From positions 1-55,812 of the forward strand of contig JBHLMP010000024.1 in the NCBI GenBank assembly GCA_048938025.1: a DNA stretch of 55,812 nucleotides, given 5' to 3'. The notes below the pieces were generated by a model that saw only the letters and a program-made list of their open reading frames with translations, had not been told where the DNA came from and did no database searches. Below are positions 2,229-54,733 of the stretch, piece after piece; within the stretch, counting starts at the first letter, position 1, and each line of letters opens with the position of its first letter. The position numbers were made by a program, and so were the translations under genes. The DNA is from Promethearchaeota archaeon (lineage in GTDB: Archaea > Asgardarchaeota > Lokiarchaeia > Sigyniarchaeales > SOKP01).

Positions 2229-3494
2229 TTAAATATGTATTTTTTCTAAATTTTTATTTAATTGTTTTATTTCTTTTTTGGAGATTTTATTATTATGGAG
2301 TTCGATAAACTCTAATCGTGGAAGGTTTACTAATTTTTCAAGCTCTTTACTTTCTGATATTTTATTATTACTAAGATCCAAAATCAATAATTCTTCAAGA
2401 TTTTCAAGACCTTTCATTTCTGTTATTTTATTTTGAAAAAAACTTAAAATTTCTACTTTTTTCAAATTTTCAAGACTCTTAATTTCTGAAATCTGATTAT
2501 GATCTAAATATAATACCTCTAAATTAGTTAGGGTTTCAAGACCCTTTATTTCTCTTATCTGATTATTATTTAAATATAATTTTATTAAATTAGTTAGATT
2601 TTCTAGCCCTTTTATCTCAGAAATTCGATTTGATGAAAGATTTAGATGCTTTAATTCTTTTAGATTTTCAAGACCTTTAATTTCCCCTATCTGATTGCCT
2701 TCAAGAACTAACAATTCAAGATTTTTTAGAAAATCTAAGCCTTTTATTTCTGTAATTTCACTATTATCAAGAACTAAATACTTTAAATTTGGAAAATTTA
2801 CAGGTGAATCTATTTCAGTAATACCTGAAAGTCCTAAAAATTCTAATTTTTTTAATTTTTCGAGTCCTTTGAGATCGCTTAGCTTTTTAGTATTTAACGC
2901 TAGTTCTATAACATATCCCTCTTTTAAGAGATAGTGCATTAATTTATGTTGCTTATCTATATAATTGATAATTTTAAAATTAATATAAATTTCAAGCAAT
3001 TTCTCAAGATCCAATTGCTCAAATGGTTCCTTATCATTTAGATATTTAAGCCACTCAATGTAATTTTCAAGCTTTTCATCTGCAATATTATCAAGAATAT
3101 ATCTAAGGTATTCAATTAAACTTGTACCCAATGATTTTTCATTATCTTTTTTGAAAGATTCTATAAATATAGATATTATTTGGGGTGAAATTTCATATTT
3201 AATCGCCCATTCAATTAAAGATCCACATTTATTTGGGAAATTATTTGTTATAGATTTCGCTGCTGTGCTTCTTATTAATTCAATTTCATCTGAAATTAAT
3301 AATTCTTTAAGAATAGAAAATATTTTTTGATCCTCGAACCCCACTTCATTTAAAATCTCAAGGCTCTTAATCCTACTGTCAGTATTATCACTGTTCTCAA
3401 TTATTGAAATTAATATATCTATCAAGGATTTTCTATCGATCTTGCCATTTTTATATTGGTCAAGGATTACCATAGGATTTATCTTCCTTTTCAC
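2229..3494 (-). CDS. Leucine-rich repeat protein (SDS22-like LRRs) with N-terminal HEAT-like region
   Basis: About 9-10 22-aa repeats LxxLxLxxNxIxEIKGLExL; helical N-terminus. Confidence 0.9.
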   Translation of the reverse strand: MKRKINPMVILDQYKNGKIDRKSLIDILISIIENSDNTDSRIKSLEILNEVGFEDQKIFSILKELLISDEIELIRSTAAKSITNNFPNKCGSLIEWAIKYEISPQIISIFIESFKKDNEKSLGTSLIEYLRYILDNIADEKLENYIEWLKYLNDKEPFEQLDLEKLLEIYINFKIINYIDKQHKLMHYLLKEGYVIELALNTKKLSDLKGLEKLKKLEFLGLSGITEIDSPVNFPNLKYLVLDNSEITEIKGLDFLKNLELLVLEGNQIGEIKGLENLKELKHLNLSSNRISEIKGLENLTNLIKLYLNNNQIREIKGLETLTNLEVLYLDHNQISEIKSLENLKKVEILSFFQNKITEMKGLENLEELLILDLSNNKISESKELEKLVNLPRLEFIELHNNKISKKEIKQLNKNLEKIHI

Positions 3495-5405: not shown

Positions 5406-5969
5406 ATGTCAGGTGATCGTTGGTCATTTAAAATAACAGTTGTCGGAGATGGACAAGTAGGGAAAACATCTCTAATCCAAAAATTTACAAAAGGCAGTTT
5501 TCAAGAGGAATACATCAAAACAATTGGAGCCCAGTTTTCTATATATGAAATGGAAATAGATGGAGACTTTTGTGAGCTTTTTTTCTGGGATATTGCTGGT
5601 CAAGATGAGTTTCATTTCTTAAGACCCTCTTTCTATAAAGATAGCAAAGCAGCTATTATTGTATATTCGCTTGAAGAAAATGATCTTGGTAAAAATAGTC
5701 TTAAGCATATACCAAATTGGCATGATGATATTCTCAAATTTTGTGGTGATATTCCCATCGTGGTATTTGCTAATAAAGTTGATTTAGTTGATAAAGAGAA
5801 TTTGGTAGATACAAAGATTTTAAAAATTATTAAAAAAAGAAATTTTCTTGAATATTATAGAACATCAGCAAAAACAGGCGAAGGAGTATCTCAGGCCTTT
5901 CAAACAATAATCAGAGAACTATATAATAAATATAAAGCATTATTTTTAGAATTGAAAAGTAAAGGTTAG
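5406..5969 (+). CDS. Rab-like small GTPase
   Basis: G1 GDGQVGKT, G2 TIG, G3 WDIAGQ, G4 NKVD, G5 TSAK; no C-terminal prenylation Cys motif. Confidence 0.95.
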   Translation: MSGDRWSFKITVVGDGQVGKTSLIQKFTKGSFQEEYIKTIGAQFSIYEMEIDGDFCELFFWDIAGQDEFHFLRPSFYKDSKAAIIVYSLEENDLGKNSLKHIPNWHDDILKFCGDIPIVVFANKVDLVDKENLVDTKILKIIKKRNFLEYYRTSAKTGEGVSQAFQTIIRELYNKYKALFLELKSKG

Positions 5970-6102: not shown

Positions 6103-8718
6103 ATGATATTAAAAATTTTTATTATCGCTCGTGGTGGAATTCTCTGTTATTCTAAGAATTTTTTTGAGCAGATTGATATAGATGAAACTGTAATTAGCGG
6201 ATTTCTTAAAGCTATAAGTGATTTTGCCAAAGAAATTAAAGGGGGTGAAGTAAAAGCACTTAATTTTAGAAATTTTAAGTTTATCTATTCTTATTCTTTT
6301 GAGTTTGATTGTATCTTTGTCATAGTAATTGATAAAGATGATTTAGTACAAGATACAAGAACTAAACTTGAACTGATGAAGAATGAGTTCATAATAAAAT
6401 ATAAACCATTTTTAGAGAATTGGACAGGAAATGTTAGTGTTTTTGAAGACTTTGATGATTTTGTGATTGAGAATGTATATATTCCACCTAAGATCTTATT
6501 AACTGGAGAAGATGGTGTAGGTAAAACAACAATTATGGATTTAATTCCTGGTGACACTATTTTGGAAATTGATGATAATTTAAATGAGGTTATTCAAAAA
6601 CCTATTAATTTTGATGATTTAAAGGGAATTCATCAATGTATTATACAAGAAATTAATATGGAAGAACTGACCTATAATTCACATCTATTCAAAAACTTAT
6701 TAAAATCTGTTGATGTTGTACTTATTGTTACAAATTCAGCCGCAAGTAATTTGGGTCGAACAAAGACTTTAGTCTCAGAATTAAAACCTGAAGTAAAGAA
6801 AGCAGACTTTTATCTTCTAGCAAACTTTCAAGATTTGAAAGATGTTGCATTCGAGCCCGAAAAAATAGAAGAAACGCTAGGAATCAAAACTTTTGGCTTT
6901 ACAGCAGTTAAGGAGGAATCTAAAACTAAAATAATTTTCATTATTAAAGAAATATTAAAAATTTCTATTTTAGACAAAATAGAAAAAAAACATATCTCCC
7001 CAATAGAAGAAGAACCTATTTTTTATAGTGAAGAAAAAGTTGAATATGAGAAGGTTGATTATGTTGATATTTGGGATCAAATAGAAAAAGCAAGAATTTT
7101 AGAAAGAAAAGGTGAACATCTTGCAGCTGCAGAAGAATTCTCTTGTGCTGCTACTCAATTTAAAGATATGTGCTCAAGAGTAGAATTCGAACTAGATATA
7201 GAAGAACTTACGGCTATATCTTTTCTTTGTAGAGCATGGGAGGCTATGGAATTTGCTGAAGAGTATGAAGATCCCGAAAGATTTTCGGAGGCAGCAGAGT
7301 TATTTAATGAAGCAAGTAAACATTTCACAAATAGTAAATTAAAGTTGTTAGCTTTAGGAAATTCTGCTTTTTGTCAAGCATTAGGTTTAGGTTGTGAATT
7401 TGACAAGACAAGCGATACATCTGTTAAAGCAGAATATTATCCAAAAATTAAAATGATGTTAAGAAATGCTGCAAATTTATATCAAAAGGGTGAATTTAAA
7501 AGTGAGGCAAATTGGGCTCTTGCTACTTCTACTTATTTTGATGCTACGTGGTATATAATCAGAGCAGATGAAGAATTAAATCTTGATGAAAAGAAAAAAC
7601 TTTTAGAAATTGGATCTGGTGTATTGAAATCTGCAGCTGAACTATTTGGTAAAGCAGGTTATAAAGACAGAGAAAAAGAAGTTTTAGATCGCTTGGATTT
7701 AATAGCGAAAGAAGAGAAAATAATAATTTCGGCATTAAGTACAATTAGCGAACCTTCTCTATCTAAAAATACTTTAGATTTATTGGTACCATCGATTCCA
7801 CACCCAACTCCGAAAAAAGAACTGCAAAAAAGGGGTAAAGAAAGAAAATATAAATTAATTTATAGAGATTTACTTAAAGAGTACCCAAAAATTCAGAGAA
7901 GAGAATGTAGAGTTGGTATTGCTCAGATAGGGGTATCTAGTACCGGAGATTATTTAAGAGAATTCTATAAAGAAAAATCACCTGGTTTGTTAGGACTCCG
8001 TAAGGATAAAATTGATGTGATTAGATCTAAGGTCAAGAAGATGATAGAAAAAGCACATGCCAGCAATGTAAATATTCTTATCTTCCCAGAAATGTCTATC
8101 GATCTCAATTATGGTAAATTTCTTGAAGATATATCTAATTTTGCTAAATCATATGAAATGTATATCATTCCAGGATCATATCACAACAAAGAAACTAAAC
8201 TAAATATTAGTATGGTTTTTGGTCCAGATGGAATCCTTTGGGAACAAGAAAAACATATTCCAGCAATAATCCATCTTAAAGGAAAAAGATTTACGGAAGG
8301 GATTAAGACAGAAACCTTACCAAGACAAACTATTATATGTAATACCGAATTTGGAAGGATGGCAATAGCAATATGCAGAGATTTTCTCGACATGGATCTC
8401 AGAGTTGAACTTAAGAATTTTGAACCACCAATAGATTTAATGTTTAATCCAGCTTTTACTCCTGTTACAGCCGATTTTAAAGCAGCTCATTTTGATGCCA
8501 GGAGGTCAATATATGCTTATTGTTTTTTTGTGAACATCGCTGAATTTGGAGGATCTCTTATTTACACACCAGAAAAAGAACGTATTGAAAGAACAATACA
8601 ACCTAAAGAAGAAGATATAATTTTTAAAGATATAGACCTCTTTAAATTACGATCAGAACGTAAAAAATGGGAAAAAGAACGAAAAAAAGATAAGAGCTTC
8701 ATACAAAGTACTAGATAA
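6103..8718 (+). CDS. Multidomain protein: longin-like + atypical small GTPase + TPR/SNAP-like helical repeats + carbon-nitrogen hydrolase (nitrilase family)
   Basis: N-terminal IFII.RGGILCYS...ISGFLKAI (longin-like); P-loop GEDGVGKTT; NFQD; repeated AAELF-type helices; nitrilase triad motifs IFPEMS, QEKHIP, AICRDF. Confidence 0.8.
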   Translation: MILKIFIIARGGILCYSKNFFEQIDIDETVISGFLKAISDFAKEIKGGEVKALNFRNFKFIYSYSFEFDCIFVIVIDKDDLVQDTRTKLELMKNEFIIKYKPFLENWTGNVSVFEDFDDFVIENVYIPPKILLTGEDGVGKTTIMDLIPGDTILEIDDNLNEVIQKPINFDDLKGIHQCIIQEINMEELTYNSHLFKNLLKSVDVVLIVTNSAASNLGRTKTLVSELKPEVKKADFYLLANFQDLKDVAFEPEKIEETLGIKTFGFTAVKEESKTKIIFIIKEILKISILDKIEKKHISPIEEEPIFYSEEKVEYEKVDYVDIWDQIEKARILERKGEHLAAAEEFSCAATQFKDMCSRVEFELDIEELTAISFLCRAWEAMEFAEEYEDPERFSEAAELFNEASKHFTNSKLKLLALGNSAFCQALGLGCEFDKTSDTSVKAEYYPKIKMMLRNAANLYQKGEFKSEANWALATSTYFDATWYIIRADEELNLDEKKKLLEIGSGVLKSAAELFGKAGYKDREKEVLDRLDLIAKEEKIIISALSTISEPSLSKNTLDLLVPSIPHPTPKKELQKRGKERKYKLIYRDLLKEYPKIQRRECRVGIAQIGVSSTGDYLREFYKEKSPGLLGLRKDKIDVIRSKVKKMIEKAHASNVNILIFPEMSIDLNYGKFLEDISNFAKSYEMYIIPGSYHNKETKLNISMVFGPDGILWEQEKHIPAIIHLKGKRFTEGIKTETLPRQTIICNTEFGRMAIAICRDFLDMDLRVELKNFEPPIDLMFNPAFTPVTADFKAAHFDARRSIYAYCFFVNIAEFGGSLIYTPEKERIERTIQPKEEDIIFKDIDLFKLRSERKKWEKERKKDKSFIQSTR

Positions 8719-8781: not shown

Positions 8782-9822
8782 TTAATTCTTAGTTTTATCT
8801 TTTTCCTTAACTTCAGCTTCGGTTCCCTCAATTTTAATGGGTTTAACAGGTTTTGACTTATCAATTGGTTCATTACAAACCCAGCACATATTCTCAATAT
8901 TACTAAGTTCTTTTGAACAATTAATGCAATAAAGTGCACTACATTCTGGGCAAATATAATTTATTCCAGATACAGTTCCTTTACAAACTAGGCAAATTTT
9001 TCTTTCACGATGGAATGTTACTTCTTCTTCAGTTATATGGTCTGGTCTTTTAGTAAGTCTAAATAATGACTCTTCAATCTTAAGTTCAGCTTTCTTTTCT
9101 TTTTTTTCACGTTTTTCTGGTTCTTTTCTTAAGCCTAAATAAAAAAACCAAACACTACTCAGTGAACCAATCCTAATAAAACTTACAAGTTCCATTATAC
9201 CCAAAAAATCTAACAATGCTGATATGTTAAGGATTAAATATGCTATTGCTAAATAATAATATTTCTTACTAATTACACCTGAAGCTTTTCTACCTTTATA
9301 GAGAAGCCCTGGAGCTTGAAAAAAAATGCCTGTGAAAGTAAAAATAGTTCCTATGGTACCAGCAGGAGATCCAGTGATAAGGCTGTCATCAATTAATTCA
9401 TCACCGGTATTTGTAGCTCGGATAAATGTAATATTTCCATATGGATCTAAAAAAATACTCAATTCAAAAATTATGCTTAAAATGATAAATGTTGTTATTA
9501 GATAATATTTTTTTTTAGGTAATATGATTTCAAGCCCTACATAAAACGCTATTGTAAAAGAAATGGGAACAATTGGCCAAATTAGGTATCCTAGTAAAAG
9601 ATTAGTTGTATTGTGACCTGTAAAAACAATTGTTAAGAAATCAACACAAATCCCCAAATAACAAAGTCCTGCTAGGATTAAACTTATTCCCATTATTGTA
9701 AGAGTTTTAATATTAGTCTTTTTTGAAATATAGAAGAAATACACTCCAGAAATACAAAACGTTATAAGTACACCTAAGGTTGTTACACCAATGATCCCAC
9801 CTAAGGCAGATAAGAAAAGCAT
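8782..9822 (-). CDS. 7TM membrane protein with C-terminal C4C4 RING-like zinc finger (candidate membrane E3), paralog 1
   Basis: Seven hydrophobic segments, then a charged linker, then C-x2-C-x10-C-x2-C-x4-C-x2-C-x10-C-x2-C. Confidence 0.75.
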   Translation of the reverse strand: MLFLSALGGIIGVTTLGVLITFCISGVYFFYISKKTNIKTLTIMGISLILAGLCYLGICVDFLTIVFTGHNTTNLLLGYLIWPIVPISFTIAFYVGLEIILPKKKYYLITTFIILSIIFELSIFLDPYGNITFIRATNTGDELIDDSLITGSPAGTIGTIFTFTGIFFQAPGLLYKGRKASGVISKKYYYLAIAYLILNISALLDFLGIMELVSFIRIGSLSSVWFFYLGLRKEPEKREKKEKKAELKIEESLFRLTKRPDHITEEEVTFHRERKICLVCKGTVSGINYICPECSALYCINCSKELSNIENMCWVCNEPIDKSKPVKPIKIEGTEAEVKEKDKTKN

Positions 9823-9951
9823 TTTAATATTTCACCGTTGATAATTTAGATTACTATATTAGTTAATAATAATCGATATAGTAGTATTTAAATAAATTAT
9901 TATAAAAGCTTAATTACACGAATTGCCAAATTTGTAAAATTGAGAAATTTA

Positions 9952-10014
9952 TCAAAAATTATTTTCTTCAGTTTTTGTTTCACTTGCTTCTTCTTCCTTG
10001 GTGAATTTGTACAA
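9952..10014 (-). pseudogene. Remnant or micro-ORF homologous to the 3' half of the 53-aa ORF at 11332-11493
   Basis: (L/M)YKFTKEEEASETKTEENNF* aligns without gaps to FYKFTKKKDTNKSNTKENNIT*. Confidence 0.45.
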
Positions 10015-10086
10015 GATAAATAATAACCTATATAAATTTAAGAGGGGCTCATTAGGTCTTTAAATTAAATATAAAAAAGAAAAATA

Positions 10087-11154
10087 TTAACTTTTAGGTT
10101 TTTTTATTTTATCCTTAACTTCCGCTTCAGTTCCCTCAATTTTAAAAGGTTTTGAAGGTCTTGATTTGTCAATCGGTGCATTACACGCCCAACAAGCATT
10201 TTCTAAATTGGATAATGCACGTGCACAGTTTTCACAATATAATGCATCACAACCAGTGCAGATATACGTATTGAAACCCCCTACCTTACTTTTGCATACT
10301 AAACAGATTTTCTGTTCCCTATAATAAGTAACTTCTTCTTCAGTTATTTGACTAGGTCTTTTAGCAATCCTAAATAGTGAATCTTCAATTTTAACTTCTT
10401 TTTCGGTAGAAATTTTTTCAACTTTGATAGGTTCTTCTTTCAATCCCAAATAATACAGCCAAAATGTAAAGACCATGCCAATTCTTACTAAAAATAGTCC
10501 AACGCCAATAATTCCTGAACCCTCAATCAAACTAAATACAGAATTTAAAATAAAGCCAATTGATAAATAAAAATACTTTTTTCTTAGTACATCTGTTGAT
10601 TTAATACTTTTAATCAAATACCCAATTCCAAGAAAAATGAAGGAAGTAGCGACATATAATAAGCCAATTAGGTAAAAAAGGCTATTAGCGAGCATATCTT
10701 CATCAACAAGATCTTCACCTGGCTCATCGGGAACGTAAATTGATACAGATCCTAGTGGATCTAAGAAAAGAAGTAATTCCCATACAATTGATAAAAATAA
10801 AATAAATCCAACAATATACCATTTTCTTTTAGGAATTAGTAGTTCGCCACCAACATAAATGGTAAATATTATTGAAAAAGGTACCCAAATATAACTCATA
10901 ATAGCTTGTAATTCATATGGTATATCTATTCCATTTACAATATCAAAATTTTTACCTGTTATTAAAAGAGATAAAGATTCCCAGAAATTACCCCAATACC
11001 AAAGACCATTAAAAAAAATAGCCAAACCCATATAAAAGAGGAGTTTAACATTCGTCTTTCTACCTTGATACATAAAATATAAGCCAAAAGAACAGCCAAA
11101 TATAAGAATACCCATTATTGATATAACATTAAGCCAACCTACATCAGAAAGCAT
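10087..11154 (-). CDS. 7TM membrane protein with C-terminal C4C4 RING-like zinc finger, paralog 2
   Basis: Seven TM segments; CLVC-x11-CTGC-x4-CENC-x10-CWAC. C-terminal KIEGTEAEVK is shared with paralog 1. Confidence 0.75.
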   Translation of the reverse strand: MLSDVGWLNVISIMGILIFGCSFGLYFMYQGRKTNVKLLFYMGLAIFFNGLWYWGNFWESLSLLITGKNFDIVNGIDIPYELQAIMSYIWVPFSIIFTIYVGGELLIPKRKWYIVGFILFLSIVWELLLFLDPLGSVSIYVPDEPGEDLVDEDMLANSLFYLIGLLYVATSFIFLGIGYLIKSIKSTDVLRKKYFYLSIGFILNSVFSLIEGSGIIGVGLFLVRIGMVFTFWLYYLGLKEEPIKVEKISTEKEVKIEDSLFRIAKRPSQITEEEVTYYREQKICLVCKSKVGGFNTYICTGCDALYCENCARALSNLENACWACNAPIDKSRPSKPFKIEGTEAEVKDKIKKPKS

Positions 11155-11715: not shown

Positions 11716-12621
11716 ATGATATCAAGGATTTATGTTATAGCAAAAGGAGGGATACTGTGTTTCTCGAAAAACTTTATTTGTCCCAGTGAAGTAGAGGATG
11801 ATTTAATTAGTGGTTTTCTTACTGCAATTAGTGGTTTTGCCAAAGCAGTTAAAGTTGGTGAAATAAAATCACTTAACTTTAAAGATTTTAATTTTTTCTA
11901 TTCTTATTCATCTGAATACGATTGTATGTTTATTATTGTTACAGATATAGAAGATCTGGAAGATGAGGTAAGAGAAAAAGTAGAGTTGATGAAAGTTGAA
12001 TTTATTAATAGGTATCATGAATATTTAGAGGATTGGACAGGTAAAACTCAAATGTTTGAAAGTTTTGATGAGTTTATTGAAGAAAATATATATATTCCCC
12101 CAAAAGTCTTATTTGTTGGTGAAACTGGTGTAGGAAAAACAACTATCATCGATTTATTTCCTGGAGAAACTATTTTAGATATAGATGATGATATGAATGA
12201 AATCATTGAAAAATCAGTTGATATAACAAATTTAGGAAATATAAAGCAATTTATACTAAGAGAAATTGATTTAGAAAATTTAATTACTCATTCAAAGCAA
12301 TATGAAACTTTATTAAACATTTGCGATATTATTTGTATTATAACTAATTCAGCAGCCAGTAATTTAAGAAGAACAAAAAAATTATTTTTAAAACTTAAGA
12401 AAAAAGTCAGGAAAGCAGATTTCTATATAATTGCCAATTTTCAGGATTTAAAAGAAACTTCCTTTGAACCTAAAGAGATTGAAGATACTTTTGGTGTACA
12501 AACATTTGGATTTTCTGCAATCCAAGAAGATTCGGCTAAAAATATTTTTATCATAATGAATGAAATTCTAAAAAATTCCATTTATAATAAAATTCAAATG
12601 AAGCAAAAGCAAGTTTCTTAA
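11716..12621 (+). CDS. Longin-like domain + atypical small GTPase (paralog of the N-terminal third of 6103..8718)
   Basis: IYVIAKGGILCFS...ISGFLTAI; P-loop GETGVGKTT; TNSAASNL and ANFQD shared with 6103; no DxxG. Confidence 0.8.
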   Translation: MISRIYVIAKGGILCFSKNFICPSEVEDDLISGFLTAISGFAKAVKVGEIKSLNFKDFNFFYSYSSEYDCMFIIVTDIEDLEDEVREKVELMKVEFINRYHEYLEDWTGKTQMFESFDEFIEENIYIPPKVLFVGETGVGKTTIIDLFPGETILDIDDDMNEIIEKSVDITNLGNIKQFILREIDLENLITHSKQYETLLNICDIICIITNSAASNLRRTKKLFLKLKKKVRKADFYIIANFQDLKETSFEPKEIEDTFGVQTFGFSAIQEDSAKNIFIIMNEILKNSIYNKIQMKQKQVS

Positions 12622-12664: not shown

Positions 12665-13177
12665 ATGGTAATTGACGAGAATTACGTATTTCCATTATAT
12701 ATTACTAAAGAAGTAATAGAAGGGATTAAAAAGATATGTAAAGAAAACGTTAAAGAAGTTTTTGGTTATTTAGTTGGAGAACGCTACATTTGGAATAAAC
12801 AGAAATATATTTTATTAAATCATTATCTTTACATAAAGGAGGCTTTCATAGCAAATGAATTTTATTTTCAAGAATCAGGAGAAAAAGGGATAGTCAATAA
12901 TATTCAATTTGAATTTTTTAAATATTCAGAGAAATTTGATAAATTAAAATTAGATCAAAATAATGAAAACTTACTAAGGTTAGGGTGGTGGCATTCCCAT
13001 CCAAATTTTGGATGCTTTTTAAGTAATGTTGATTTAGCTACGCAACGTTCAATTTTTAATAAATCATATCACGTAGCTTTAGTTGTTGATCCAATTAGAG
13101 ATGAATATAAATTTTTCACTTTAAATGATCAATTCGAAGATGGGTATAAAGAAATTAGTTATGCCATTATCAAGTAG
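12665..13177 (+). CDS. JAMM/MPN+ (JAB) metallopeptidase, Rpn11/CSN5-like deubiquitylase or Ubl-maturing enzyme
   Basis: EVFGYL...GWWHSHPNFGCFLSNVD.ATQ...ALVVDP is a complete JAMM motif. Confidence 0.93.
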   Translation: MVIDENYVFPLYITKEVIEGIKKICKENVKEVFGYLVGERYIWNKQKYILLNHYLYIKEAFIANEFYFQESGEKGIVNNIQFEFFKYSEKFDKLKLDQNNENLLRLGWWHSHPNFGCFLSNVDLATQRSIFNKSYHVALVVDPIRDEYKFFTLNDQFEDGYKEISYAIIK

Positions 13178-13230: not shown

Positions 13231-14109
13231 ATGACAGATAACAGTGATAATGAATATAAAGTTTTAGGAGAGGAGGATTTAAATGAGGATAAGTATGATC
13301 GGCAGAAAAGAATTGCTGGTTGGGATCAAAATAAGATTTCAAATGCTACAGTGATGATAATAGGTGTTGGAGCAACTGGTAACGAAGTTGCAAAAAATCT
13401 AAGCCTAACTGGAATTGGAAAGTTGATTATTATTGATTATGATATTATTGAAAAATCCAATCTTAATCGATGCATTTTGTTTAATATGGAAAATAAAGTA
13501 GAAAGTAAATATAAAGTAGATATCATTAAAGCAGCGTGTGAAAAACTCAACCCTGAAGTTAAAATCTTAACAATAAAGAAAGCTCTAAATGAGATAGATA
13601 AAGATTTGTATAAACAAGTGGATGTGGTTTGCTCTTGTCTTGATAATATTGAAGCTAGACTTGAAGCAAATAATTATGCTTATTATTTCCAGGTACCTTT
13701 TATTGATTCTGGAATTGATGAATTCTTTGGAACAGTTCAAGCTGTATATTCTGGAGTTGTTGATGCCGCTTGTCTACAATGCGGAATTTCTGGCTCCGAT
13801 TTAGATTTAATGTGGTTAAAGTTTTCCTGTACAGGAGAAGAAATCGAATCTTCTAATGGAACTACTATTGGTAAGATTGCTACTATAATTACTACAACTT
13901 CGATTATAGGAGGAATTCAAACTCAACAAGTAATAAAATTTTTATTAGGAATTGATCAATTTAAAGAGCAAGGAAAATGGAATCCTCATATTGGAGAACC
14001 CTTGATAGGTAAACAATTAAATTATAATGGATTAATAAATAAATTTGAAGTTATTGAAAAGTTAAAGAATCCAGATTGTTGGACATGTTCTTATAAGCAT
14101 AATAAATAA
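13231..14109 (+). CDS. Ubiquitin-activating enzyme E1 (ThiF/UBA family)
   Basis: YDRQ, GVGATG, DYDIIEKSNLNR, CLDNIEAR; Zn pairs CLQC and CWTC; candidate catalytic Cys in FSCT. Confidence 0.93.
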   Translation: MTDNSDNEYKVLGEEDLNEDKYDRQKRIAGWDQNKISNATVMIIGVGATGNEVAKNLSLTGIGKLIIIDYDIIEKSNLNRCILFNMENKVESKYKVDIIKAACEKLNPEVKILTIKKALNEIDKDLYKQVDVVCSCLDNIEARLEANNYAYYFQVPFIDSGIDEFFGTVQAVYSGVVDAACLQCGISGSDLDLMWLKFSCTGEEIESSNGTTIGKIATIITTTSIIGGIQTQQVIKFLLGIDQFKEQGKWNPHIGEPLIGKQLNYNGLINKFEVIEKLKNPDCWTCSYKHNK

Positions 14110-14216: not shown

Positions 14217-14780
14217 ATGCCAGAACTTCCTTTAGAAATTTGGAAAAATAGGATTGAAAATGAAATTAAAAGTTTAAAAAGTTTAAATGTTATCGATACC
14301 AATTCAATAATTCAAAGTGATGATCGAGTTAAATTTTTAATCAATTTAAAAGCCTTAGGATTTATTATGGGGACTTTCAAGGAAGGAATTGATATTGTTC
14401 CTCAAAAAGATCATCAAATTCATTTGGAACTAAATAGAGCTTTTCCATATCCTGGAGGTATTAGTTTTTCTTGGCAATCAAATATATTTCATCCTAATAT
14501 TCATCCTACCAAAACACCTTCACGTTACGAATCTGGAACGGGCTATATTTGTTTAAACATTCTAAAAAAATGGTCAAGACTTACAGATTTAGAGACTACA
14601 GTTAAAGCCTTGCAAAAATTAGTGGAGAACCCTAATCCCGATGATCCATTAAAATATGATATTTGTTTAGAAGCAGCAAATTTTTTTAAGCAAAATACCA
14701 TGGAAGACCTCAAGAGAGAGTTCAAAATCGAAGAAAAAGAAGAAGAGGAAGAAAAGGATGACATAGTTATTATAGATTAG
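14217..14780 (+). CDS. Ubiquitin-conjugating enzyme E2 (UBC fold)
   Basis: FPY, IFHPNI, GYICLNIL..W, PNPDDPL; acidic C-terminal tail. Confidence 0.93.
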   Translation: MPELPLEIWKNRIENEIKSLKSLNVIDTNSIIQSDDRVKFLINLKALGFIMGTFKEGIDIVPQKDHQIHLELNRAFPYPGGISFSWQSNIFHPNIHPTKTPSRYESGTGYICLNILKKWSRLTDLETTVKALQKLVENPNPDDPLKYDICLEAANFFKQNTMEDLKREFKIEEKEEEEEKDDIVIID

Positions 14781-14859: not shown

Positions 14860-15126
14860 TCAACGTTTATAATTTCCTCCAATGACTCTTGCCCATAAAG
14901 CTAATTTGTCATTTTCTTTTAAACCAAATTTATGGACAGAATCCTCAATTGTTATTGTTGAAGGTAACTCCTTTCCATTTAATACTAAAGTATATGCACG
15001 TTCCTCAGCACTAATAATGCCCATATGCTTTATAATTATGTCTATAATCCTTTCAATTGTATGATGCTCCTTAACATCAAGTTTAATAACCTTACCTGTT
15101 CGTGAATCCTCAACAGTTATTCGCAT
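14860..15126 (-). CDS. Ubiquitin-like protein precursor (GG followed by NYKR)
   Basis: TGKVIKLDV, TIERI, LVLNGKEL and ARVIGG align to ubiquitin TGKTITLEV, TIENV, LIFAGKQL and LRLRGG. Confidence 0.9.
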   Translation of the reverse strand: MRITVEDSRTGKVIKLDVKEHHTIERIIDIIIKHMGIISAEERAYTLVLNGKELPSTITIEDSVHKFGLKENDKLALWARVIGGNYKR

Positions 15127-15268: not shown

Positions 15269-16372
15269 CTATTCTTCTCTTAGTGTTTTCCTTGATCCTT
15301 CAGATATTGTGATATCAATATCTTCTTCTTCAATTTTAAAAGGTTTAATAGGTTTTGAATCGTCAATTGGATTATTACAAGACCAACACATGTTTTCTAA
15401 CTGAGTTAATATTTGAGCGCAATTATCGCAATAAAATGATTTACACTTAGGGCAAATAAAAACATCAATGAATCCCTTTAATTTTTTTTTACAAACTAAA
15501 CAGATTGTTTGTTTTCGATATAACTCAATATCTTTTATGGATATATCAGAAGGTCTAGAATATGATAAAACCTCGGATAATGAAGTCGTCAGGACCTCAC
15601 CCTCAACTTCATCAGTATGAATACTTTCTTTTGGTAGAATTGGTTCTTCTTCTTTTTTTACTCCCAAAACAAAAAAAAGACCACTAATAACCATTCCATA
15701 TCTAATAATAATTAAAATGACTGTTGGTAGGAAAAATAAAATATCCACTGATCCAAACCCTATTAAGAGAATGAAACATATAGCTAACCTCGTGAATTTT
15801 TCTCTTAAGAGGCCTGTTGATTTAACAGATCCATATAAAAATCTAACAACATAGAATAGTATTGCTGTAATAAAAAAGATCAAAACTAAAATAGAAGCAG
15901 GAGAACCTACAATTAAAACATTATCAATTAAGTTTTCTCCCGATTTTGTAGGCATCTTATAATCCACAGTACCAAAGGGGTCTAAAAAAAGAAATAAATC
16001 AAAAATTATTGCCAAAATAATATAAATAAATAATATTGAATTTTTTAATTCTTTCTTAACACCTGGTATCACGAATTCAAGGCCAATATATATCCCAAAT
16101 GAGAGAGTAGGAGCTAACCATATAAATGTTAAAATACCATGAATTCCAGAAGTATTATTCAAATTCTTACCAGTAAAGAGGATTGTAAAAAAATCTAAAA
16201 CAATACCTGTGAAAAACATACTTATGAATATAATTGTTAAGCCAAAATACAGTAAAATATCTGCTTTTGATTTTTTATATCTATAAAGACTAAAACTACC
16301 CCAAATAAAGCCAGTGATATACCAAATAATTGCTGTTATTCCGTTAAATAGTCCAATAGGAGTTAAAGTAAT
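15269..16372 (-). CDS. 7TM membrane protein with C-terminal C4C4 RING-like zinc finger, paralog 3; probable ATT start
   Basis: The ORF track starts in mid-TM2 at 16219. The frame is open for 51 more codons (ITLTPIGLFNGITAIIWYITGFIWGSFSLYRYKKSKADILLYFGLTIIFIS), homologous to the N-terminus of paralog 4. AAGGTG precedes ATT 16372. Finger: CLVC-x12-CPKC-x4-CDNC-x10-CWSC. Confidence 0.75.
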   Translation of the reverse strand: MTLTPIGLFNGITAIIWYITGFIWGSFSLYRYKKSKADILLYFGLTIIFISMFFTGIVLDFFTILFTGKNLNNTSGIHGILTFIWLAPTLSFGIYIGLEFVIPGVKKELKNSILFIYIILAIIFDLFLFLDPFGTVDYKMPTKSGENLIDNVLIVGSPASILVLIFFITAILFYVVRFLYGSVKSTGLLREKFTRLAICFILLIGFGSVDILFFLPTVILIIIRYGMVISGLFFVLGVKKEEEPILPKESIHTDEVEGEVLTTSLSEVLSYSRPSDISIKDIELYRKQTICLVCKKKLKGFIDVFICPKCKSFYCDNCAQILTQLENMCWSCNNPIDDSKPIKPFKIEEEDIDITISEGSRKTLREE

Positions 16373-16600: not shown

Positions 16601-17656
16601 TCAAGGTAATTCATTATCTTGCTTAATTGGTTTTGATTCATCGATTTGCTTATCACATATCCAACACATATTACTCATTTCTATCATCTTTTGCGTGCAT
16701 TTTTCACAATATAACGCTTCACATTGAGGACAAATAAAAACCTTAATAAAACCTTGTATTTCTTTCTCACAGATTAGACATATTGTTTGCTCTCGAAATG
16801 CTAAGATCTCTTCGGGTGATAGCTCTTTAGATTTAGTCTCAGATAATATATCTATAAGAGATGGTTTAGATTCTCCAGATTTAAATATTTTAATAGAAGG
16901 TTTTTCCATGCTTTTTACAGATTCTTCTTTTAAGCTAAAAAAAAAGAGAAATCCAGCAATAATCATGAACACTCTTATTATAATTATTGATGTACCTATC
17001 GGTAAATTAAAGAAATCTAAAGGGAAAATAGCTATATCTAAAGAACCAAAACCAAAAAATACTAAGAAAGTAATTAATAATAATATGAGTTTCTTTCTTA
17101 ATATTCCTGAGGATTTAATGCCCCCATACAAAAATGAAAGACTAAATACTATAATCCCCGGAAATAAAGAAATTGCAAGCATATAAAATGGAGGTGTCCA
17201 AAAAACTAAGATATTATCAATTAAATCTTGACCGGGTTCTGAGGGATTTTTATAAATGATCGAACTTGAATGAGTTAAAAATAATAGAATTTCGTAGATT
17301 ATACTTATTATTGAAAAATAAATTAGAATTAAATATTTCAACCATTTTTTAAAGTTCATAGCAATAAGTTCATTAAATATATAGGTACCAATAATTATTA
17401 AAGGGCCAAACCAGAAAAATGTAAGAATGCCATGTATATTTGTATCTAAGTTGCTCTCTGTAATGAGGACTAATAAAGAGTCTAAGAGCAAGCCTGAATA
17501 TAAAAAACTTATAAATAACACAGCCAGCCCCATAGAAAATAAAACATATGATTTTGTTTTCCTTGCCTTAACTAGACTATATGTCCCCCATATTAAACCG
17601 AGGGTAAACCATATAATAACGGTTAAAGCACTTATTACTCCAATAAGAGAAGGCAT
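16601..17656 (-). CDS. 7TM membrane protein with C-terminal C4C4 RING-like zinc finger, paralog 4
   Basis: Seven TM segments; CLIC-x12-CPQC-x4-CEKC-x10-CWIC. Confidence 0.75.
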   Translation of the reverse strand: MPSLIGVISALTVIIWFTLGLIWGTYSLVKARKTKSYVLFSMGLAVLFISFLYSGLLLDSLLVLITESNLDTNIHGILTFFWFGPLIIIGTYIFNELIAMNFKKWLKYLILIYFSIISIIYEILLFLTHSSSIIYKNPSEPGQDLIDNILVFWTPPFYMLAISLFPGIIVFSLSFLYGGIKSSGILRKKLILLLITFLVFFGFGSLDIAIFPLDFFNLPIGTSIIIIRVFMIIAGFLFFFSLKEESVKSMEKPSIKIFKSGESKPSLIDILSETKSKELSPEEILAFREQTICLICEKEIQGFIKVFICPQCEALYCEKCTQKMIEMSNMCWICDKQIDESKPIKQDNELP

Positions 17657-19623: not shown

Positions 19624-20670
19624 TTATCCCAATTCGGTTTCAATACATTTTTTAGCGATTTGTTTAAAGACATCATGTATGTTTTCCCCTGTTAAAGCTG
19701 ATGTTTCATAATAATCAAGGCTTAATTTTTTAGCAATATCTTCTGCTTCTTTTCTTTTTATCATTCTTTTCTCAGTTAAGTCACATTTATTTCCAATTAT
19801 CATCATTGGTAAATTATGATTTAATTTTACTTCTTTCGTTATATCTTGATACCATTTGGGAATATTCTTAAGAGATTCTGGATTTGTTAGATCAAAAATT
19901 AAGAAAGCCGCCTCTGCTCCTTTATAGTAATGTTTTCTCATCATCTCGAATTTAAGTTGTCCAGCTATATCCCAGAGAATGAAATTTACCGTATCTTTAT
20001 CAATTAATACATTTTTCTCTGAAATTGAGACTCCAATAGTTGCAATATAAGTTCGCCTAAATGCATTATCAGTAAATCTTAAAATTGTTGACGTTTTTCC
20101 CACACCAGGATCTCCACAAACAACTACTTTAAATTTGTATTTTATAATCCCTTTATCTTCTATAGGTTCCTCAGGAAATGCTTCAGATTTTAAGGCAGAT
20201 TGTTCTTTTACTCGGAGATCCTCTAAAATATTTAAAATTTCAGTACGTAAATTATCTATTTGACTAGAAAGAATATCCTTTTTTTTTTTAATATCTTCTA
20301 TGTTAATTATTTCTTGAGTAATTTTATTAAATGCTGGTTCTAGAAAGCTCAAATATTTATAAAAAATCAGATCGTCAATTTCACTGAAAAGTAAAGTAAT
20401 AGATGATTGAGCAACACCACCACGGCGAGAATGATCTTCTTTTTCTATATATTTTATTATACCTTTCGAGGTTAATGATGGGAATGGCATAATTATTAAA
20501 GATTTAGGCATTAAACCTTGGTCTGCTGAGAGTATTGTAATTGATTTAATACTAACAGCCATGCGAAAGCTCTCAGGTAAATCAGAAGGATACCATAAAA
20601 TTGGGTTTGGTCCAAGTTCTTCGTCAAATTCTGTAAATATTATTGCTTTTATTAATTCTTTAGCTATCAT
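19624..20670 (-). CDS. uDENN/longin-like domain fused to Rab-like GTPase
   Basis: EFDEELGPNPILWYP (uDENN-like FD..GP motif); GDPGVGKT, WDIAGQ, NKCD, ETSA. Start moved to ATG 20670 by alignment with the paralog at 20932. Confidence 0.85.
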   Translation of the reverse strand: MIAKELIKAIIFTEFDEELGPNPILWYPSDLPESFRMAVSIKSITILSADQGLMPKSLIIMPFPSLTSKGIIKYIEKEDHSRRGGVAQSSITLLFSEIDDLIFYKYLSFLEPAFNKITQEIINIEDIKKKKDILSSQIDNLRTEILNILEDLRVKEQSALKSEAFPEEPIEDKGIIKYKFKVVVCGDPGVGKTSTILRFTDNAFRRTYIATIGVSISEKNVLIDKDTVNFILWDIAGQLKFEMMRKHYYKGAEAAFLIFDLTNPESLKNIPKWYQDITKEVKLNHNLPMMIIGNKCDLTEKRMIKRKEAEDIAKKLSLDYYETSALTGENIHDVFKQIAKKCIETELG

Positions 20671-20865
20671 CAGTTCAGCAAATTTATGACTTAAATAAAA
20701 ATTGACACTATATATGAATAATTTATATAAATTATAATAATTTAAACATTTGATCAATTTAAATAAGCAACGGAAAAAATATGTCTCAAGTTGACTTTCT
20801 TATAAATCCAGTATTTTAATAGCATAGGAGTTAATTCTTTATTATTATATAATAAACCACCATTC

Positions 20866-20931: not shown

Positions 20932-21981
20932 TTATAAATCATCTTTTAATGATTCATATAAAGTTTTGGCAATGTCATAAAAAGCTTGTTCAACATTATC
21001 TCCTGTTAAAGCTGAAGTTTCTATATAGTTAAGATTCAGATCATTCGCTAACTTATTTGCTTGTTCAAATCCAACAATTTTTTCATTAATTAAATCATTT
21101 TTATTACCAATTATAAATCCTATAATTTCTCTTGTATCTTTCAATTGGCTTTCAATATCTTTATACCATTTTAGAATGCTATCGAATGTTTTAGAGTTAG
21201 CTAAGTCAAATACTAGGAAAACTGCATCTGTTCCGAGATAAAACTGACGCCTCATGGTTTCGAATTTTACTTGACCCGCGATATCCCAAATCACAAGTTG
21301 AACAACAGAATCGTCTATTTTAAAGGTTCGGTCTGAAACCACGACTCCTAATGTTGGAATATACCTTCTTCTAAACGCTTTTTTAGTAAATCTTAAAATT
21401 AGGGAAGTTTTTCCTACGCTTGGGTCACCAACTATGCTGATTTTAAATTTGTAATCTATAAAATCAGAAGTTCTTCTTGATATTTCAGGAAAAGCTTCCA
21501 TATCTAGAGCAGAAGTTTCTTTAACTTTCAACTCATATAATACATTTAATATAACTCTTTCAAGTGTTTTTAACTCGTTTGTAATATATTTTTTATCTGC
21601 TTTTGATTTTTCTAACATCATGATTTTTGCAGCAATTTCATTAAAAATCAACTCAAGATTATTCTTATATTTATAAAATATAACGTCATCAACATTTTTA
21701 AAAAGTACAGTAATAGCAGCTTGACCAATATCACCTCTACGAGATTCATCCTCCCATATTATATATTTAATCAATCCCTTTAAATTTAGTGAAGGAAATG
21801 GAAGAATTACGAGAGATTCTGGAACCAGACCATGTTCACCAGAAAGAATTGTAATAACTTTTATACTGATATGCATTTGATCTTCATAAGAGAACTCTGA
21901 AGGAAGACTAGCGATTGGATTTGGTCCGAGTTCATCGTTGAGCTCGATATATAGAACTGCGGTTATGATATCTTCTTCCAT
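20932..21981 (-). CDS. uDENN/longin-like domain fused to Rab-like GTPase (tandem paralog)
   Basis: ELNDELGPNP; GDPSVGKT, WDIAGQ, NKND, ETSA. Confidence 0.85.
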   Translation of the reverse strand: MEEDIITAVLYIELNDELGPNPIASLPSEFSYEDQMHISIKVITILSGEHGLVPESLVILPFPSLNLKGLIKYIIWEDESRRGDIGQAAITVLFKNVDDVIFYKYKNNLELIFNEIAAKIMMLEKSKADKKYITNELKTLERVILNVLYELKVKETSALDMEAFPEISRRTSDFIDYKFKISIVGDPSVGKTSLILRFTKKAFRRRYIPTLGVVVSDRTFKIDDSVVQLVIWDIAGQVKFETMRRQFYLGTDAVFLVFDLANSKTFDSILKWYKDIESQLKDTREIIGFIIGNKNDLINEKIVGFEQANKLANDLNLNYIETSALTGDNVEQAFYDIAKTLYESLKDDL

Positions 21982-34288: not shown

Positions 34289-35254
34289 TTGGAAAAAGGT
34301 CAATCCATCTTATACTTGAAAAAAGAAGTAGAAGAAAAACCTGTTCAAAATAAGATTTTATTCACAGGTCTTGATAATGCAGGCAAAACAAGCATTATTT
34401 TAAGCCTTCAGCGAGAATTTTCTAAAATTGCCTTACTCTCTCCTACGAGGGGGGCTCAGAGAAGAATCTTCGATTTTCTTGGAAAGGAAATATCAGAATG
34501 GGATTTAGGTGGGCAACTTTCCTATAGAATTTCATACCTAAAGAGCCCGGGTAAATTTTTTGATGGAACAGAAATTGCTATATATGTTATAGATCTTCAG
34601 AATAAAGAACGGATTTCTGAAGCTATTAGTTATTTTAAAGATGTAGTAACACAATTTAGAAAGTTGGAAATAGAGCCACCTATTTATATTTTTCTACATA
34701 AATATGATCCAGCGTTAAAAAGGAATGCTAAGAATGAAATGACAAACCTTATTTTAGAAATAAAAGAAAAATTTAAAAAAGCTACAGATTATAAAAAACT
34801 CTTTTATTATGAAACATCGATTTATGATTTTTCTTCAATTATAACGGCAATGAGTGAAATTCTTTTAAGTTTATATCCTAAATCTGAATTAATAGCAAAA
34901 ACGATTCAGGAATTTGCGAAAAAAGTAAACTCTGAAGGAGTAGTTGTAATTGATGATAATTCTCTTATTATTGGTTCTTATTATAAAGATGATGAAGTAA
35001 AGCATCTCCTAACCGCCTCAACCCCATACTTTCTTACGTTGAATGATTCATTCGAATTTACTGACGTCATGGAAGAGAGATATGAAAATAGAATGATAGT
35101 TCAAAGATTTGGAAGAAATTTTATTTTCAAACAGATAACTCTGAAAAAAGGATTAACTCCATATTATCTACTTCTACTTAAAGGGGATCCCATTTTCCGT
35201 AAAGAAGATTTTGAATCTTTTGCTAATTTATTAAGAGAAATTATACAAAAATAG
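34289..35254 (+). CDS. Rag/Gtr-like GTPase with C-terminal roadblock-like domain
   Basis: GLDNAGKT, PT, WDLGGQ, HKYD (Rag-type G4), TSIYD. Confidence 0.85.
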   Translation: MEKGQSILYLKKEVEEKPVQNKILFTGLDNAGKTSIILSLQREFSKIALLSPTRGAQRRIFDFLGKEISEWDLGGQLSYRISYLKSPGKFFDGTEIAIYVIDLQNKERISEAISYFKDVVTQFRKLEIEPPIYIFLHKYDPALKRNAKNEMTNLILEIKEKFKKATDYKKLFYYETSIYDFSSIITAMSEILLSLYPKSELIAKTIQEFAKKVNSEGVVVIDDNSLIIGSYYKDDEVKHLLTASTPYFLTLNDSFEFTDVMEERYENRMIVQRFGRNFIFKQITLKKGLTPYYLLLLKGDPIFRKEDFESFANLLREIIQK

Positions 35255-54364: not shown

Positions 54365-54733
54365 TATATTCACCTTATTTATTTCATACTTTTATGTTAG
54401 ATCTCTTTAAATTTTTAGATTTGATATATAATATAATACTGTGATATTTAATATTATATTTTTTATCTTTTAGAATTCATTTAAGTCATCTTAATAAGAG
54501 TTAAGAATATATCTGTACAAGTCTTCAATTGAACCAAGTGGTAATATTAATGTTAAGATACTAAACTTTACGACCATAAAAATAAATAATTAAAAAAAGG
54601 AAAGAATTTTAATCTTTGTTCTTCTCTTTATTAGCGAGGGAATTCAAATTTACAACTAGAACAGTAATTTTATTCGCCTAATTTTTTTTGAAATTTATTA
54701 AATTAGATTACTTAAATGGTTTTAATATTAATA

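Follow-up and report, generated by a model that had tools for sequence, protein, structure and literature searches.

Ubiquitin operons that encode soluble RING E3 ligases are known from Asgard and Aigarchaeal genomes, and two of these ligases have been reconstituted: srfp of Caldiarchaeum subterraneum (PMC5654768) and a Helarchaeial RING protein (bioRxiv 10.1101/2023.07.25.550441) are described as working as E3s in vitro. Both are small, soluble proteins encoded beside a pro-ubiquitin ending in GG and a short tail, a ThiF-type E1, an E2 and a JAB/Rpn11 protease, and in Caldiarchaeum the tail of pro-ubiquitin is reported to be trimmed by Rpn11 (PMC5654768). Membrane-bound RING E3s are a hallmark of quality control in the eukaryotic endoplasmic reticulum, Golgi and endosome. 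Eukaryotic multi-pass membrane RING E3s include Tul1 (Dsc complex), Hrd1, Doa10/MARCH6 and the MARCH family, among which Tul1, with about seven transmembrane (TM) helices, marks membrane proteins for ESCRT-dependent sorting. Here we analysed a stretch of 55,812 nucleotides (the window) from a Promethearchaeota archaeon (contig JBHLMP010000024.1, assembly GCA_048938025.1), which contains four paralogous genes, A to D, that likely encode membrane-anchored RING-type E3 ubiquitin ligases.

What is new at this locus is that the putative E3 that is syntenic with the ubiquitin genes is a seven-helix, receptor-like membrane protein, and that the genome contains about ten genes bearing the same finger. 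Literature searches found no published family of archaeal proteins combining a seven-transmembrane (7TM) domain with a RING, and PMC12962969 and PMC11188069 yielded nothing relevant to it. The 2026 preprint 10.64898/2026.10.28.762692 refers to '7TM proteins' of Asgard archaea and to a structural cluster called 'a class C GPCR', in passages that do not name a RING; the cluster tables of that work might include the 7TM-RING family.

Gene context of the four paralogs

In the window, genes for a pro-ubiquitin-like protein, an E2, an E1-like adenylyltransferase and a JAB/MPN metalloprotease are clustered between paralogs B and C, the ubiquitin gene converging on the plus-strand genes (Table 1). For a synteny scan, 78 loci of the family from 42 assemblies (one genome per species, all labelled Asgard) were searched for ubiquitin genes within 10 kb. 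A ubiquitin-system gene was present at 18 of the 78 loci, one per assembly in 18 of the 42 assemblies. Sixteen of these linked loci contained an E2, and 15 contained ubiquitin, E2, E1 and JAB genes together; a homolog of the P-loop gene that opens the JAB-E1-E2 operon of the window was found at every one of the 15 loci with the full set. The gene order was always the same (RING>Ub> <E2<E1<JAB<P-loop gene), and at 13 of the 18 linked loci the ubiquitin gene directly followed the RING gene, within about 200 nt. By our own estimate a 20-kb span covers about 0.5% of the genome, which places the linkage far above chance. This gene context is the strongest evidence for a ubiquitin ligase, and we regard it as decisive.

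Within the cluster, the E2 residues H92, P93, N94 and C112 were invariant in 53 sequences. The matches of the E1-like protein to the NCBIfam ThiF/MoeB/Ube1 models were below their cut-offs, as were the weak Pfam Rad60-SLD and ubiquitin matches of the pro-ubiquitin-like open reading frame (ORF). The shortness of the E1 would fit the bacterial-like 'Cluster III' operons described in the supplement of PMC5654768, and the JAB/MPN protein is a candidate for both the pro-ubiquitin processing enzyme and a deubiquitinase. The N-terminus of the P-loop protein appears roadblock-like when read from sequence alone. In most genomes this protein has a long form of about 870-890 aa; the window encodes a long form as well, which carries a C-terminal CN_hydrolase domain, adjoins paralog A and lies outside the operon.

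Architecture of the paralogs and their finger motif

Paralog B consists of a 7TM domain, a disordered acidic/basic linker, a conserved pre-finger helix, a C4C4 finger and the tail PIDKSRP, and paralog A has the same architecture. The interval given in the initial annotation, 8782-11154, contains A and B; C and D lie outside it. Paralog C was listed with an ATG start at 16219 (15269-16219, 316 aa), which would remove its first two TM helices. The frame stays open upstream to 16375, and the residues encoded between 16219 and 16375 align with the N-terminus of D; for these reasons C is likely not truncated and either starts at a non-canonical ATT at 16372, 7 nt behind a GGTG, or has lost its start. 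The window has a G+C content of about 28%, and close homologs of its proteins carry the label Promethearchaeota (Asgard archaea).

A regular-expression check agreed with the ligand pattern first proposed for all four paralogs, C-x2-C-x(10-12)-C-x2-C-x4-C-x2-C-x10-C-x2-C, the proteins differing in the length of the first loop (Table 1) and being identical in all other gaps. The alignment of A to D likewise bore out the invariance of CL.C, YC..C, N.CW.C and ID.S[KR]P, and the finger was indeed better conserved than the TM region (mean pairwise identity 53% versus 33%). When the window was translated in all six frames, the strict pattern turned up four times; the 3.52-Mb genome had nine occurrences, and 200 shuffled windows had none. 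A DNA pattern for CW.CN gave three matches against 0.01 expected, D escaping it with CWICD.

Predicted fold of the finger

The last 100 residues were modelled with AlphaFold2 (AF2) from a 65-row alignment, with a mean predicted local distance difference test (pLDDT) value of 75.9 and 10-residue blocks of 83-91 over residues 11-80. The model contains a helix (17-25), a hairpin (41-43/50-52) and a second helix (53-62) that occupies the stretch from ligand 6 to ligand 7, and this secondary structure recurs in the full-length AF2 model. The modelled finger forms a treble-clef core that superposes on solved RINGs; this core includes the beta-hairpin and a central helix that lies between the third and fourth ligand pairs. 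In a Foldseek search of the PDB the top matches were Bmi1/Ring1b, TRIM37, PCGF5, UHRF1, HRD1, Bre1, Rad18 and RNF165; E-values were weak (0.01-0.2), with probabilities of up to 0.99. A PHD and a LIM chain came low in the list, at ranks 36 (probability 0.12) and 48, respectively.

The model was also compared with 48,161 representative chains by VIA-align; Z was at least 2 for 226 of them and in no case exceeded 5. Of those 226, the best 50 were RING/U-box chains, except for one ribosomal zinc protein and alpha-COP. The best matches were Nse1 (Z 5.0, root-mean-square deviation (rmsd) 2.3, 51 residues aligned), APIP6 (4.7), GATOR2 (4.6), CesA (4.6), EL5 (4.5) and HRD1 (6a3z, 4.4), with CNOT4 (1ur6_B, 3.7) and the crystal chains of p44/p34 (3.5) lower down. 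Residues 339-387 of TFIIH chain E, taken to be the p44 finger because a sequence search places the finger of GTF2H2 at 343-387, scored Z 4.7 (rmsd 3.2, 49 aligned) here and 4.7-4.8 (rmsd 3.1-3.2) over both VIA-align searches. The second of these, a look at the 996 best chains of Foldseek, agreed in that nearly all of its best 50 were RING/U-box chains, and gave IFT-A (5.2), Prp19 (5.1), Nse1 (5.0), RNF165 (4.9) and p44 (4.7-4.8). The listed RING/U-box superpositions had rmsd values of 1.7-2.6 over 46-52 aligned residues. With Z values tied within one unit, these modest scores suggest a RING/U-box fold without indicating which RING. PHD, FYVE, LIM and double-ribbon chains did not appear among the best 50 of either VIA-align search, a result that does not by itself exclude these folds.

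The initial annotation had read the finger as a cross-brace RING and had named PHD, FYVE, LIM and double-ribbon folds as the contrary outcome. Among the matches listed, Foldseek and VIA-align gave almost only RING/U-box domains, so that this outcome did not occur, and a cross-brace RING remains the best reading: the superpositions point to an interleaved pairing of the ligands, by which the finger would bind two zinc ions.

Variation of the finger across the family

A search with paralog B yielded 256 homologs at E ≤ 0.001 among 3653 candidates, nearly all of 340-370 aa; those with names came from Asgard archaea and were either called 'hypothetical' or carried an automatic B-box, DC1 or PHD label. 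A search with no more than the last 100 residues retrieved 870 cluster representatives at E ≤ 0.001 (548 at E ≤ 1e-10), in which the finger module was always C-terminal, in proteins of 95 to 670 aa. The Protein Atlas gave only unnamed Asgard clusters, with no structure of the protein among its entries. Seven Cys, the Tyr before ligand 5, the Asn two residues before ligand 7, the Trp directly after ligand 7 and an Asp in the tail were invariant in 65 aligned fingers. Ligands 3 and 4 were separated by two residues in 60 of the 65 and by one in the other five, and ligand 5 is His in some members, so that the all-Cys pattern with x2 gaps is the majority form within the family and no fixed rule. 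The ligand pattern thus varies inside one family in ways that separate named RING subclasses. Members with C-x-C as third and fourth ligands or with His as ligand 5 (C4HC3) were seen at loci L025, L069, L074, L076 and L077.

The second position after ligand 1 (V286 in B) was V/I in 64 of the 65 fingers and the fourth after ligand 6 (L314 in B) was L/I/M in all 65, conservation that would be expected of an E2-binding RING. These positions may correspond to I30 and W58 of srfp, which are reported to be needed for its activity (PMC5654768). In alignments of hidden Markov models (HMMs) with RNF4 and MDM2, the invariant Trp aligned with the Pro of C-P-x-C, in agreement with the earlier proposal that it sits where RINGs have CP.C, and the residue after the last Cys aligned with the 'linchpin' Arg. 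This residue was N in 47, D in 13, E in two and I, G or L in three of the 65 sequences, and K or R in none. As judged from these alignments, the non-basic linchpin position is a real departure from the well-studied active RINGs, one that the tail P-[IF]-D-x-[ST]-K-P, itself invariant, may make up for.

Predicted docking on the E2 of the operon

A complex was predicted from residues 1-170 of the E2 (53-row alignment), residues 14-86 of the finger (65-row alignment) and two zinc ions. Three runs scored 0.64, 0.59 and 0.61 (median 0.61), compared with 0.00, 0.00 and 0.01 for three controls; they shared at least 83% of their contacts, with a partner pLDDT of at least 80. Of 157 solved complexes, 116 attained the score mark, as did 2 of 215 mismatched pairs, in a calibration made without a riding ligand and with other alignments. 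On the E2 side the contacts involved residues 2, 4-5, 8, 11-12, 15-16 and 19 of the N-terminal helix and Y78-P79, many of which are invariant; on the finger side they involved the loop after ligand 1 (V31-S34), residues 54-55, 58 and 62-63 of the central helix, and F82. The predicted face on the E2 is the one used by RINGs, and a PY loop of the E2 is described as essential in the Caldiarchaeum cascade (PMC5654768). A RING and an E2 form a textbook pair, and the passing score may reflect likeness to solved complexes rather than prove binding. The initial annotation had suggested that the Trp could define a distinct E2-binding surface; the invariant Trp lay outside the confident E2 contacts, which is no evidence that it does not touch the E2.

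The predicted seven-helix membrane domain

The full-length AF2 model of paralog B (92-row alignment) had a pLDDT of 87.5, with values of 92-99 over nearly all of residues 1-240 (80 in block 71-80). It places TM helices at residues 4-33, 37-66, 80-106, 108-131, 159-185, 188-212 and 218-238, a beta-hairpin at 137-154 and a disordered linker before the finger. Averaged over 92 sequences, the predicted cytoplasmic segments contained 3.26, 1.71, 0.97 and 7.36 K+R residues and the predicted outer segments 0.02, 0.5, 0.7 and 0.11. By the positive-inside rule, the predicted topology has the N-terminus outside and the finger in the cytoplasm; this concentration of K+R would put the finger on the side of the E1, E2 and ubiquitin.

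The best Foldseek matches of the TM domain were class C G-protein-coupled receptors (GPCRs), namely GABA-B (E 4e-4), CaSR and TAS1R (to 8e-3), with TM-scores to GPCRs of 0.3-0.46, identities of 5-12% and rmsd values of about 4 Å or higher. VIA-align gave ADGRL3 (Z 13.5, rmsd 4.1, 212 aligned), GABA-B (13.4), a designed GPCR-like fold (13.3) and GPR156 (13.2), followed by ceramidase (11.2) and microbial rhodopsins (11-11.8); Z values to GPCRs were 11-13.5 over 207-232 residues, and according to the note that accompanies the tool a Z near 13 is attainable by helical arrangement alone. Neither Pfam 7tm_1/2/3 or another family nor an NCBIfam model matched the TM domain in A to D and the 65 members, apart from weak matches to HisKA_7TM in two of the 65. 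The domain is thus modelled as a GPCR/rhodopsin-like 7TM bundle, in the sense of a likeness of fold and not of homology. GPCRs (class C, adhesion, frizzled and class A) and microbial rhodopsins have the same order of seven helices, with the N-terminus out and the C-terminus in; unlike GPCRs, the family gives no sign of G-protein coupling and has a RING as its output domain.

Modularity and distribution of the finger

A finger HMM run on the genome of the window detected ten ORFs at E < 1e-20. Besides A to D, these encode a further family member of about 350 aa, a 344-aa TM protein and a 414-aa protein (all three with no Pfam match), a 97-aa ORF, and two proteins of 585 aa (contig C9, 56079-57833) and 460 aa (contig C35, 1-1380) that have a TPR array as N-terminus. 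The presence of the same finger on TM proteins and on soluble TPR proteins of one genome accords with the idea, put forward in the initial annotation, of variable sensors with a common output. A TPR array combined with a finger is, by analogy, the typical layout of a substrate adaptor plus RING. In both TPR proteins (loci L079 and L080) the C4C4 finger is C-terminal and has an EEEV helix before it.

Three weaker matches in the genome have His in place of the second Cys. Two large ORFs of 1080 and 715 aa (contig C82, 70508-73747 and 73859-76003; loci L084 and L085) end in a degenerate C-x2-H finger, and the helical module before that finger shares 45% identity, along 363 residues, with the central part of the 871-aa protein of the window. 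The same scaffold thus appears to carry either a RING-like finger or an amidase-like domain (CN_hydrolase).

Of 121 genomes sampled throughout the phylum, nine had the finger at E ≤ 1e-8, all of them in the GTDB family of the window. Within this family, eight of the 15 other genomes and the window's own were positive, with 1 to 16 matches per genome. Since its own GTDB family was the only positive one in the sample, the 7TM-RING family is a lineage-specific elaboration and not an ancestral Asgard trait. A pan-Asgard spread was considered and rejected: only one GTDB family was positive, though the contig labels of submitters name several Asgard groups.

Neighbouring genes in the window

The window also encodes small GTPases (Ras-, Arf- and RagA/Gtr1-like), several with long N-terminal extensions, as well as a leucine-rich repeat (LRR) protein, TBP, MtrH and an L13e-like gene. 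Two neighbouring paralogs close to the end of the window have a single C-terminal zinc ribbon with Zn_Ribbon_1/DZR matches, which is a different module from the C4C4 finger.

Table 1. Positions of the paralogs, the ubiquitin gene cluster and other features in the window.
Feature	Position	Strand	Details
Paralog A	8782-9822	minus	346 aa; finger C1-C8 at 8875-8994, first loop x10
Paralog B	10087-11154	minus	355 aa ORF
Paralog B, predicted 7TM domain	about 10441-11154	minus	residues 1-238; AF2 full-length model
Paralog B, finger	10183-10305	minus	residues 284-324; C-x2-C-x11-C-x2-C-x4-C-x2-C-x10-C-x2-C
Paralog C	15269-16372	minus	367 aa from probable ATT start; finger C1-C8 at 15377-15502, first loop x12
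Paralog D	16601-17656	minus	351 aa; finger C1-C8 at 16655-16780, first loop x12
Pro-ubiquitin-like gene	14860-15126	minus	88 aa, ending RVIGG+NYKR (GG+4); 142 nt downstream of paralog C
E2 (UQ_con)	14217-14780	plus	Pfam 6.2e-12; HPN motif, catalytic Cys112
E1-like ThiF adenylyltransferase	13231-14109	plus	292 aa; Pfam ThiF 2.4e-46
JAB/MPN metalloprotease (Rpn11-like)	12665-13177	plus	Pfam JAB 2.9e-10
P-loop/GTPase-like gene	11716-12621	plus	301 aa; weak P-loop matches; first gene of the JAB-E1-E2 operon
Long form of the P-loop protein	6103-8718	plus	871 aa
Small GTPase genes	5406-5969, 19624-20757, 20932-21981, 30932-32434, 34289-35254, 39598-41061		
LRR protein	2229-3494		
Zinc-ribbon paralog	53651-54373	minus	240 aa
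Zinc-ribbon paralog	54734-55426	minus	230 aa

Evidence for and against a ubiquitin ligase

In our judgement the four genes likely encode membrane-anchored RING-type E3 ubiquitin ligases, and A to D are probably the cognate, as well as the syntenic, E3s of the Asgard ubiquitin operon. In the mechanism that we propose, the JAB protease would trim the GG+4 pro-ubiquitin, the ThiF-type E1 would activate ubiquitin and the E2 would carry it as a thioester; the finger would then dock on the N-terminal helix and PY loop of the E2 and promote ubiquitylation of lysines on substrates in the membrane or close to it, with the 7TM domain selecting the substrates or gating the finger. The motif with its conservation and the operon with its conserved synteny are observed; the RING-like and 7TM models and the topology are predictions. 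Zinc binding with cross-brace pairing, E2 binding (in silico), ligase activity, substrates and any ligand are what we infer for the family.

Several results weigh against this reading. Sixty of the 78 loci lacked a ubiquitin-system neighbour within 10 kb; unlinked loci are, however, expected where several RING paralogs per genome go with one operon. The structural matches rest on predicted models without zinc, and Z values of 4-5 are modest in absolute terms. Ligand 5 was Cys in 58 and His in seven of the 65 fingers (10 of 65 rows in a first alignment), and a missing basic linchpin may mean that stimulation of E2~Ub discharge is weak or dependent on another element. Ligands 4 and 5 are separated by four residues, the remaining loops fitting the classical RING consensus; this gap is two to three residues in classical RINGs and four in the C4C4 subclass and in PHD fingers. 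No Pfam model matched paralogs A to D at its cut-off and no RING model reached its gathering score: the best of them, zf-C3HC4_3, gave 20.5 bits with B, 17.6 with D and 23.6 with the isolated domain, at a cut-off of 27. At E ≤ 0.01, C1_2 was commoner among the 65 members than any RING model (44 versus 25 for zf-C3HC4_3), followed by zf-Tnp_2 (20), Prok-RING_1 (8), zf-RING_2 (8) and PHD (5); B-box, FYVE and DZR were among further scattered matches below threshold, and NCBIfam gave no match to the paralogs. When PDB sequences were searched with a profile of the finger, the PHD pair of KMT2D came first (E 5.4e-5 over the complete chain; its domains taken singly gave 0.04 and 0.64), and RING, C1, p44 and FYVE matches were interleaved below it: the RNF4 tandem RING (2e-4), another PHD, RNF113B, MDM2 and a PKC C1 domain came next, with p44 (1z60) tenth (E 0.025). 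Assigning the fold from sequence was accordingly given up, the full-length and finger-only PDB profiles failing to separate PHD, RING, C1 and p44.

A rival reading is that the finger is a non-catalytic adaptor of the RING/PHD superfold, which does not activate an E2 but links the 7TM protein to a partner, perhaps a ubiquitin-system protein or a GTPase, after the model of the p44 RING holding the vWA domain of p34 or of a PHD 'reader'. We consider such an adaptor unlikely. It would account for a ligand set and spacing as in p44, itself among the tied best structural matches, and the p44 RING is described as binding p34 'in an E3-RING/E2 like fashion', with doubts about a ligase role inside TFIIH (PMC5737387). 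The PHD pair at the top of the sequence matches, the absence of a basic linchpin from all 65 sequences and NCBI automatic names that include 'PHD finger domain-containing protein' would fit it as well. It leaves unexplained the linkage to ubiquitin-system genes in 18 of 42 assemblies and the predicted docking on the very E2 surface used by RINGs, and PHD chains were absent from the best 50 of either VIA-align search. The PHD consensus is C4HC3 with a Trp two residues before ligand 7, whereas the Trp of the family follows ligand 7 in 65 of 65 fingers; with Cys at ligand 5, A to D depart from that consensus in their ligands too.

A C1/DC1- or FYVE-like membrane- or lipid-binding module that folds back onto the membrane and regulates a 7TM transporter or receptor outside ubiquitylation strikes us as very improbable. 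The frequency of C1_2 among the Pfam matches (best E 2.9e-5), the PKC C1 and FYVE domains among the PDB sequence matches, the closeness of the domain to the membrane and the many loci away from ubiquitin genes speak for it, but the C1_2 match stops at ligand 6 (profile 13-48 of 48) and misses the last C-x2-C knuckle. The second site of C1 is described as split between the termini (PMC4506424), whereas the last knuckle of the finger is of the normal kind; soluble TPR proteins moreover carry this finger too, and among the matches listed the structure searches gave RINGs and not C1 or FYVE. There is scarcely any chance that the eight Cys instead form two sequential zinc ribbons (a double ribbon or LIM-like arrangement) in a tail binding nucleic acid or protein, the RING-like model being an artefact. 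Weak DZR/DZR_2 and zinc-ribbon Pfam matches (E 0.06-3.5), a ribosomal zinc-ribbon protein with Z 3.8 and the lack of metal in the AF2 models would be in line with ribbons. AF2 and the complex predictor, which is independent of it and includes zinc, nevertheless gave confident and concordant folds, the spacing of four residues from ligand 4 to ligand 5, with a helix beginning at ligand 5/6, is a treble-clef arrangement, and the superpositions on RINGs cover about 50 residues with rmsd values of 2.0-2.6.

Comparison with described systems

Like srfp and the Helarchaeial RING E3, the putative 7TM-RING ligases are encoded beside a pro-ubiquitin with GG and a short tail and beside E1, E2 and protease genes, and as in srfp-type E3s their RING would be expected to dock on the PY loop of the E2. 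They differ in being fused to a 7TM domain and in having a conserved pre-finger helix and a PID.SKP tail. Furthermore, srfp is described as a RING-H2 (C3H2C3) with a functional Arg 'linchpin', R69 (PMC5654768), where the family is all-Cys and has N or D.

The initial annotation had assigned the finger to the p44/Ssl1 type of C4C4 RING. The ligand set and the spacing of paralog B stand: the spacing that we take p44 to have, x2-x11-x2-x4-x2-x10-x2, matches B exactly, and the alignment ranges (profile 3-46 to GTF2H2 343-387) differ by one net residue, consistent with the spacing of B. A specific kinship with p44 is not supported. The structural scores of p44 are tied, within less than one Z unit, with those of Nse1, IFT-A, Prp19, GATOR2 and RNF165, so that p44 is no closer to the family than these, and it comes tenth by sequence. 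Membership of the p44/Ssl1 family was rejected, with no Pfam match to vWA/Ssl1 at E ≤ 10 and a predicted 7TM bundle as N-terminus, and the TFIIH finger model was not among the Pfam matches of A to D or the 65 members. Both p44 and CNOT4 are described as C4C4 RINGs (PMC7614390, PMC5737387); they share with the family the eight Cys and the four-residue gap between ligands 4 and 5, whereas the family has neither the vWA/Ssl1 domain of p44 nor an RRM. The likeness to p44 appears to come from a common RING geometry and not from descent.

Prok-RING_1 (PF14446), which reportedly stems from the 2011 survey of RING fingers in prokaryotes (Burroughs, Iyer and Aravind), is likewise a prokaryotic RING-like finger found in gene neighbourhoods with ubiquitin, E1, E2 and JAB. 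Some cluster representatives of the family carry a precomputed PF14446 label, and the best E-value among the eight of 65 members matched was 1.9e-6. Membership was rejected at the cut-off of 29.1 bits, C scoring 18.6 and 20.8 and D 14.6 and 18.5 in the protein and genome scans, with A and B not listed; by these scores the family is a weak, sub-threshold relative of Prok-RING_1. Better matches to that model than A to D are three ORFs elsewhere in the genome, with lengths of 387, 405 and 410 aa, one of them over the cut-off (C76 77007-77102, C66 63949-64050 and C75 7660-7773), and the genome thus appears to hold at least one further RING-like family.

Among eukaryotic proteins, the polytopic RING ligases Tul1, Hrd1 and MARCH may serve as working analogues, with a polytopic membrane domain and a cytoplasmic C-terminal RING in common with the family; the RING of HRD1 was among the structural matches of the finger. 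Their RINGs are of the RING-H2 or RING-CH type, whereas that of the family is C4C4, and no sequence relationship was found. The predicted TM fold resembles GPCR/rhodopsin bundles and is unlike that of Hrd1.

Implications

A further reading, which we hold to be rather unlikely, is that the 7TM domain works as a genuine receptor that senses a ligand or a state and may share ancestry with the eukaryotic GPCR bundle, its cytoplasmic output being the ubiquitin ligase in place of a G protein. An extracellular or membrane cue, received at the conserved acidic loop of the beta-hairpin (FLDP.G..., residues 132-158), would then switch the RING, which would ubiquitylate membrane proteins for ESCRT-type sorting. 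If this were true, a receptor-to-ubiquitin signalling pathway would exist in an archaeon, and both ubiquitin-dependent control of membrane proteins and a GPCR-like fold would predate eukaryogenesis.

Read as membrane-anchored RING E3s, the four paralogs and their relatives would mean that an all-Cys RING with the spacing of p44/CNOT4 occurs in prokaryotes. If active, they would provide a handle on what archaeal ubiquitin systems modify, and on whether the ubiquitin marking of membrane proteins that feeds into ESCRT predates eukaryotes.

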